From: Escherichia coli
Lineage (GTDB): Bacteria; Pseudomonadota; Gammaproteobacteria; Enterobacterales; Enterobacteriaceae
Reading direction: 5' to 3' (one strand)
Length of the DNA stretch: 64,000 nucleotides
NCBI RefSeq assembly: GCF_001677475.2
Contig: NZ_CP015229.1
How positions within the stretch are numbered: the first letter of the stretch is position 1; each line of letters starts with the position of its first letter. A program made the position numbers and the translations under genes. This document shows, in pieces, positions 5,098 to 5,577 of the stretch. The notes beneath the pieces were generated by a model that had not been told where the DNA came from, searched no databases, and saw only the letters and a program-made list of their open reading frames with translations.

Positions 5098-5577
5098 TTA
5101 CCAGCGTGGTAAGGGACAAGAAGCATTGCTCGTTAATAAACTTTGCAATGTCTCTCCATCAGGGAAAATTAATTCCGGCGCAATCTCAAACAGCGGCCAC
5201 AGCATAAATCCACGATTTTTCATATCGTAGTGCGGAACGGTCAGGCGCTCGGTGTTAATCACCTGATTGCCAAACAACATAATGTCTAAATCGAGCGTGC
5301 GCGGCCCCCAGCGTTCGGCTTTACGGACGCGACCTTGCTGCAATTCAATACGCTGTGTGTGATTGAGTAACTCTTCGGGCGCGAGTGCGGTTTCCAGCGC
5401 CACGGCGGCGTTGAGGTAATCAGGTTGATCCTGCGGCCCCAGCGGTGGAGTGCGGTAAAACGAAGAAACGGCAAGAATGCAGCTTTCAGGGATATCACCG
5501 ATTGCTTTCACGGCAGCATTGACCTGCTCCAGTGGAGAGGCCAGATTGCTGCCTATGGCAATATACGCCACTGTCAT
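5098..5577 (-). CDS. folK: 2-amino-4-hydroxy-6-hydroxymethyldihydropteridine pyrophosphokinase (HPPK)
   Basis: 159 aa ORF; N-terminal 135 residues recognisable as E. coli HPPK; start ATG overlaps pcnB stop (ATGA at 5574-5577). Confidence 0.93.

Follow-up and report, generated by a model that had tools for sequence, protein, structure and literature searches.

The divergent 3′ end of folK in an Escherichia genome as a very probable part of the haplotype block of the adjacent yad-type fimbrial operon

Core genes that flank hypervariable loci may carry the edge of the variable region within their own sequence, and the 3′ end of folK raises the question of whether the last codons of an essential gene can belong to the locus beside it. 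In the 64,000-nt stretch of DNA analyzed here (the window), folK is adjoined by a fimbrial operon. A preliminary description of the window had drawn attention to the interval 5098-5170, which comprises the folK stop codon and codons 137-159, as encoding a C-terminal tail that differs from that of K-12, and had placed a plausible recombination breakpoint there. The features discussed below are listed in Table 1.

Table 1. Features at the folK end of the window (window coordinates)
Feature	Position	Strand	Description
Fimbrial usher	463..3054	minus	863 aa, 60% identity to HtrE
PapD-type chaperone	3103..3861	minus	252-aa ORF, 60% identity to YadV
Fimbrial major subunit	3918..4496	minus	192 aa, 40% identity to K-12 YadN
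AT-rich spacer	4497..5097		601 bp from folK stop to major-subunit gene; 28.5% GC; random-level identity to K-12
folK (HPPK) CDS	5098..5577	minus	159 codons + stop; basis: ORF list, phmmer, PF01288
Divergent folK tail	5098..5151	minus	codons 143-159 + stop; 43% GC vs 53% in gene body
Conserved folK body	5152..5577	minus	codons 1-142; 95% aa and 89% nt identity to K-12
pcnB	5574..6992	minus	conserved flank, 95% nt identity to K-12; homologous arm on the core side

The window FolK matched the PDB HPPK chains (1HKA, 1Q0N, 8SIF) over residues 1-159 (phmmer, E=2.5e-92), and PF01288 is on record for a protein identical to it. As in K-12, the folK ATG overlaps the pcnB stop codon (ATGA). The window protein and E. 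coli HPPK have in common their gene order and pcnB overlap, a length of 159 aa including the initiator Met, and the invariant core residues; the catalytic-core columns did not vary across 67 Enterobacteriaceae FolK sequences (alignment with the window protein as first row). On the basis of published HPPK structures, we take D96/D98, H116/Y117 and R122/F124, together with loops 2 and 3, to be the Mg/ATP- and pterin-binding catalytic positions (Met-inclusive numbering). Residues 1-142 are 95% identical to the characterized enzyme and folK is present as the sole copy in its pcnB-folK context, from which the window FolK would be expected to be enzymatically active. Relative to K-12 it has two new cysteines, C33 and C154.

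The K-12 C-terminus was given correctly in the preliminary description: NC_000913 folK and the PDB HPPK chains agree on FPDGEMLRQILHTRAFDKLNKW, or in its longer form ELVFPDGEMLRQILHTRAFDKLNKW. Compared with K-12, codons 1-140 differed at 44 of 420 nt and 7 amino acids, whereas codons 141-159 differed at 31 of 57 nt and 12 amino acids with zero gaps, bearing out both the divergence of the tail and the retention of length (159 aa) and terminal Trp in the two proteins. The maximum chi-square method, applied to the 4,748 nt that align without gaps between the folK stop and thpR, set the break between window positions 5150 and 5151: the tail side is 56.6% diverged and the remainder 4.3% (chi2 308; the highest value in 200 permutations was 18). 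A second, gene-oriented test placed it after folK nt 433 (window 5144/5145, codon 144-145). An alignment in search of an identity step inside folK, as had been proposed, thus locates one at codons 143-145 that is far beyond chance. Nucleotide divergence in the tail (59%) also exceeded that at four-fold sites in the same genome pair (folK body 23.5%, pcnB 16.9%, gluQ 21.5%). A rise in divergence through the folK body into pcnB could be seen in the raw identity profile, but the four-fold values of the folK body and gluQ were indistinguishable, and we do not assert such a gradient.

Changes in the tail affected the three codon positions similarly (7, 11 and 12 of 17). Only 5 positions are shared with K-12 in the last 17 residues (L144, L148, A152, L156 and W159), and as DNA the two tails are not alignable: homology was undetectable by local nucleotide alignment (score 10; shuffled sequences averaged 11.8), and no alternative frame of the K-12 folK 3′ end yielded the window tail peptide. 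The tail is therefore explained neither by a frameshift nor by the drift ordinarily accumulated after the genomes diverged, and the earlier view that it reflects true divergence rather than a frameshift stands. In K-12 the contrast in GC content between tail and body (31% and 53%) is greater than in the window (43% and 53%).

We then asked which organisms carry this allele. Searches with folK-pcnB against E. coli complete genomes gave 4,852 matches at 90-95% identity and 572 at 80-90%, with none above 95%. The window tail was matched in no E. coli complete genome, so it is not the common E. coli sequence, and megablast with window positions 1-5100 (operon, spacer and folK stop codon) found nothing in 5,426 E. 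coli complete genomes. Assignment of the window to E. coli, which the preliminary description had assumed, was consequently rejected, as no complete genome reached 95% over folK-pcnB and none had the tail or the operon. Two further candidates, E. albertii and E. fergusonii, were also discarded; the E. albertii type strain has another tail and another cassette. Public assemblies contain the exact window FolK, named as a MULTISPECIES Escherichia protein, in 386 indexed blocks. We read 24 contigs with the exact protein and inspected the neighborhood of 10, all of which (10/10) had the same adjoining operon. Contig DAOFPD010000004.1 was 100% identical to the window over 11.6 kb, and nine other contigs, including ADJX01000001.1, were 96.5-97.1% identical to it. 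ADJX corresponds to strain H605, listed as E. ruysiae (PMC12304041). The presence of the same tail and operon in 10/10 inspected contigs indicates that the allele is fixed in the lineage. We conclude that the window can be assigned to a cryptic non-coli Escherichia lineage that appears to be E. ruysiae-like, the species name resting on one listing together with sequence identity.

Other observations bear on the surroundings of the locus. CP089930.1, deposited as E. coli E69, was 99.2% identical to the window at the locus and has the non-coli tail and cassette; it is a separate species representative in a GTDB-based collection, and was probably mislabeled as E. coli. On the far side of pcnB, window positions 7948-9845 (dksA, sfsA and the start of thpR) were only about 1% diverged from K-12. 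Four-fold divergence was 1.5% in dksA and 0.9% in sfsA, compared with 17-24% in the neighboring gluQ, pcnB and folK, and a second maximum chi-square break was found near 7931 (chi2 94, permutation maximum 22). This segment looks like a recent recombination tract common to the non-coli lineage and E. coli. Elsewhere in the window, Rfam matches at gathering score were obtained for an HtrA 5′ UTR thermometer, t44 RNA and the CssrA sRNA (28461-28506, 36628-36714 and 37553-37662); these have no bearing on the folK tail.

On the other side of folK, the operon runs from the major subunit through chaperone and usher to minor subunits. BLASTP aligned its first three products to YadN, YadV and HtrE (E=4e-43, 2e-101 and 0), and the Pfam domains PapD_N/PapD_C, PapC_N/Usher/PapC_C and Fimbrial are annotated on the matching genes of contigs whose identity to the window is complete or 97%. 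The core genes from folK to thpR were 95.7% identical to K-12 at the nucleotide level, against 40/60/60% for the adjacent operon proteins. The window operon shares with the E. coli Yad locus (yadN-yadV/ecpD-htrE-yadMLKC) its position directly downstream of folK, its orientation, its gene order and an AT-rich upstream spacer. It did not, however, qualify as the E. coli Yad type, as its usher and chaperone are 60% identical to those of K-12 while E. coli Yad-type chaperones are 72-99% identical to each other. The window chaperone was 51-57% identical to all other yad-type chaperones examined, and the cassette is as far from the E. coli Yad type as from the O157, Citrobacter and Pseudocitrobacter types. 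By these protein identities, the operon is homologous to yad but deeply diverged, occupying the same locus as a type of its own. It adjoins folK on one side; its panB side lies beyond the window and the fetched 6-kb flanks.

Yad has been described as a core-associated E. coli fimbrial type whose chromosomal position is common to Salmonella Sta (Wurpel et al. 2013, PMC3559732), and a 2026 study reported yad sequence subtypes, recombination between phylogroups and repression by H-NS (PMC13245861). Neither of these papers mentions folK, and literature searches returned nothing linking folK to yad variation. The spacer between folK and the major-subunit gene presumably holds the fimbrial promoter or regulatory region. 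It contains a direct repeat, ATT(G/T)TAGTGTGTCATTTT, at 4782-4799 and 4812-4829, with the copies 30 bp apart, which may be a candidate regulator-binding site. Rfam assigned zero families at the locus, and scans for promoter and terminator consensus sequences found sites there no more often than in shuffled sequences.

This boundary is also seen among E. coli genomes. The K-12 tail region aligned over at least 80% of its length in 3,003 of the 5,426 genomes; in the remaining ones, the alignment ended either just beyond the stop codon or 13-19 codons ahead of it. Ten E. coli representatives were fetched for comparison of tails and cassettes. Residues 1-142 of FolK were 91-100% identical among them, and the tails fell into two families. 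The Yad-type family, EMLRQILHTRAFDKLNKW and relatives, ends in ELNKW or KLNKW and was found in K-12, 2013C-4361, ST131, H22, LH85-a and SCPM, while the O157-type family, ETLREILTSLAVLQPAIW or EMLQNRLTILNTSQPVIW, ends in QPAIW or QPVIW and was found in O157:H7, O145:H28, L26 and PEB21. These tail families match two cassette families, with chaperones 72-99% identical within and 56-61% identical between them; about 400-437 of the 5,426 complete genomes carry a cassette of the O157 type. The FolK bodies of K-12, PEB21 and L26 are 100% identical, and yet their tails and cassettes are of different families. Between K-12 and PEB21, divergence was 0.4% upstream of folK nt 433 and 72.7% downstream of it (chi2 986), and a break at folK codons 141-147 was obtained in 13/17 pairs tested. 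The earlier claim that the tail borders a variable fimbrial locus thus agrees both with the 40/60/60% protein identity of the adjoining yad homolog and with the variation of E. coli tails according to cassette type.

Several E. coli loci were unusual at the end of folK. In E. coli M2021-10044802/2-E (locus L098, 2991-3040), a private 1-nt insertion within the tail of folK cuts the protein to 151 aa (ending in TDIRKFIKNK), whereas LH85-a, 99% identical to M2021, has an intact 159-aa FolK. The truncation reflects either a natural frameshift that is tolerated or an error in sequencing, and the idea that a 151-aa FolK is common in E. coli was rejected, the insertion being private and LH85-a full length. 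The O157:H7 FolK (locus L093, 2958-3440) is 160 aa long, with an additional C-terminal Tyr past the usual Trp (QPAIWY); in O145:H28 and L26, whose cassettes are of that type too, FolK ends at the Trp. In E. coli SL124 (NZ_CM194971.1; locus L096, 2192-2940), an IS1 directly abuts the folK stop codon and has deleted the genes for the major subunit, the chaperone and the usher, and FolK there is 160 aa, ending in ELNKWW. One reading of an E. coli tail was dropped, as the tail belongs to the O157 family and the megablast alignment had simply ended early. A K-12-type FolK fragment on a 524-bp contig (coverage 0.7) of the Terrisporobacter mayombei DSM 6539 assembly is almost certainly assembly contamination.

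The comparison was extended to 78 species representatives of the Enterobacteriaceae. In 66 of them, panB follows folK at about 125 bp and the tails are near the consensus ISLRQVLARLNAEKPARW (median identity 65%), while in the other 12, which include Escherichia species, Pseudocitrobacter, some Citrobacter and Superficieibacter, a yad-type operon follows folK and median tail identity is 24%. The identity of the FolK body is 90% in both groups alike. The difference in tail identity was significant (Mann-Whitney p=2.7e-8, n=66 vs 12), although the groups are phylogenetically non-independent and the p-value therefore overstates the evidence. The family-conserved tail columns in the 67-sequence alignment are only L144, L148, P156 (at least 90%) and W159. 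The window tail resembles a degraded consensus (NASCP..RW compared to NAEKPARW), and the tails are probably homologous by descent and diverged as deeply as the cassettes. Among all 21 yad-bearing loci, tail similarity correlated only moderately with cassette similarity (Mantel r=0.38), a covariation weaker across genera than within E. coli, and about equally well with similarity of the FolK body, reflecting phylogeny (r=0.44). The cassette of E. albertii is of the O157 type (chaperone 86% identical), but its tail is only 28-35% identical, and the window tail is nearest to the Pseudocitrobacter vendiensis tail (65%), although the cassette of that species is no nearer than others (54%). These mismatches mean that linkage between tail and cassette is not absolute, or that tails also evolve fast in place. 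Searches of 80 species representatives (chaperones at most 57% identical) and E. coli revealed no closer relative of the window cassette, and hence no donor and no dated transfer.

In an AlphaFold2 model built from the 67-sequence alignment (mean pLDDT 81.7), the tail forms a helix at 144-150 followed by coil, with pLDDT of 88 for residues 141-150 and 69 for residues 151-159, and sits apart from the invariant catalytic columns. If the M2021 truncation is not a sequencing error, it suggests that the extreme FolK C-terminus is dispensable, and we infer that the tail is functionally tolerant. Being peripheral and weakly constrained, it would allow each cassette type to carry its own tail without harm to the enzyme.

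Taken together, these observations make it very probable that the last 17 codons of folK (5101-5151) belong to an old, diverged haplotype block of the adjacent yad-family operon. The operon lies between folK and panB in Escherichia and in some genera related to it, and its cassettes are of several types that diverged deeply. According to this model, homologous recombination with crossovers in the conserved flanks (here the folK body and pcnB) would exchange these types, or retain them, as whole units. The FolK C-terminus would need little beyond a spaced pattern of Leu residues and, in most cases, a Trp at the end; the step at codons 143-145 would be the homology edge of the block, in an allele that became fixed in one non-coli Escherichia lineage. 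Three marks of a mosaic end were observed: a step change, divergence beyond the neutral level of the flanks, and covariation with the cassette in near-identical E. coli genomes. We infer that the block was moved by recombination; in addition, tails must to some extent evolve in place or be separated from their cassettes by crossovers. The breakpoint previously proposed inside the folK 3′ end is therefore upheld as to the step, which does lie there, but the step represents the edge of an old divergent haplotype and not necessarily the site of a recent crossover.

Alternatively, the tail may have diverged fast in place under relaxed constraint, with no recombination. Such drift would fit the tail being the least conserved part of FolK across the 67 Enterobacteriaceae sequences, its structure of peripheral helix plus coil, the 151-aa FolK of M2021, and the E. 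albertii tail that does not match its own cassette family. However, the 59% divergence of the window tail is about three times that at four-fold sites of the flanks, and drift cannot produce the contrast between K-12 and PEB21 (0.4% upstream, 73% in the tail), which largely refutes it. In addition, panB-adjacent tails are fairly well conserved across many genera, so the tail is not unconstrained, and we regard divergence purely in place as quite unlikely. Selection on the enzyme itself, for example on its stability, regulation or drug tolerance, independent of the fimbrial locus, might be suspected from the many non-synonymous changes in a short stretch and the new C33 and C154, but we consider it highly improbable: the tail lies outside the catalytic loops and invariant columns, it tracks what follows folK and not any enzyme property, and its similar changes at all codon positions point to replacement, not to selected point substitutions. 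Finally, a compensated frameshift, arising from two indels or from errors in sequencing or assembly, could mimic the kept length and terminal Trp, and a real 1-nt frameshift does exist in M2021. An artefact of this kind nevertheless has next to no chance of being correct, as the ungapped alignment without residual identity, the shuffle-level score and the non-matching K-12 frames rule out the frameshift and the identical protein in many independent assemblies (NCBI, ENA, Logan) rules out assembly error.

Starting from the haplotype-block reading, a bolder version would be that yad-family cassettes have long carried, across genera, their own private last 17 codons and stop of the essential folK, such that part of an enzyme would in effect be a component of a cassette for surface antigens that is hypervariable and H-NS-silenced. 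We offer this as an unlikely speculation. If it were true, the AT-rich tail might have been shaped by regulation of the cassette (H-NS nucleation upstream of the fimbrial promoter) or might act as a built-in anchor that disfavors clean loss of the cassette.

An abrupt change in divergence is familiar in core genes that flank hypervariable surface loci, such as gnd beside the O-antigen cluster. As a general comparison, the folK junction has in common with that one a housekeeping gene that abuts deeply diverged allelic cassettes, with an abrupt change between them. It differs in lying inside the coding sequence of an essential enzyme, with the cassette supplying the last 17 codons and the stop. 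The folK tail is thus a fresh instance of a familiar type of junction between core gene and variable locus, and current understanding is not overturned. Its practical value is modest. A clean, recurrent boundary of a variable locus inside an essential coding sequence provides a useful test for recombination-detection methods. HPPK is also a drug target on which structural work has been done almost solely with the K-12 protein, and natural variants in which residues 143-159 are replaceable wholesale help to define the dispensable surface of the enzyme. For Escherichia, the FolK C-terminus is unreliable as a phylogenetic character, as the allele reports the type of the neighboring fimbrial cassette, and the tail found in the window marks the non-coli (E. 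ruysiae-like) lineage.
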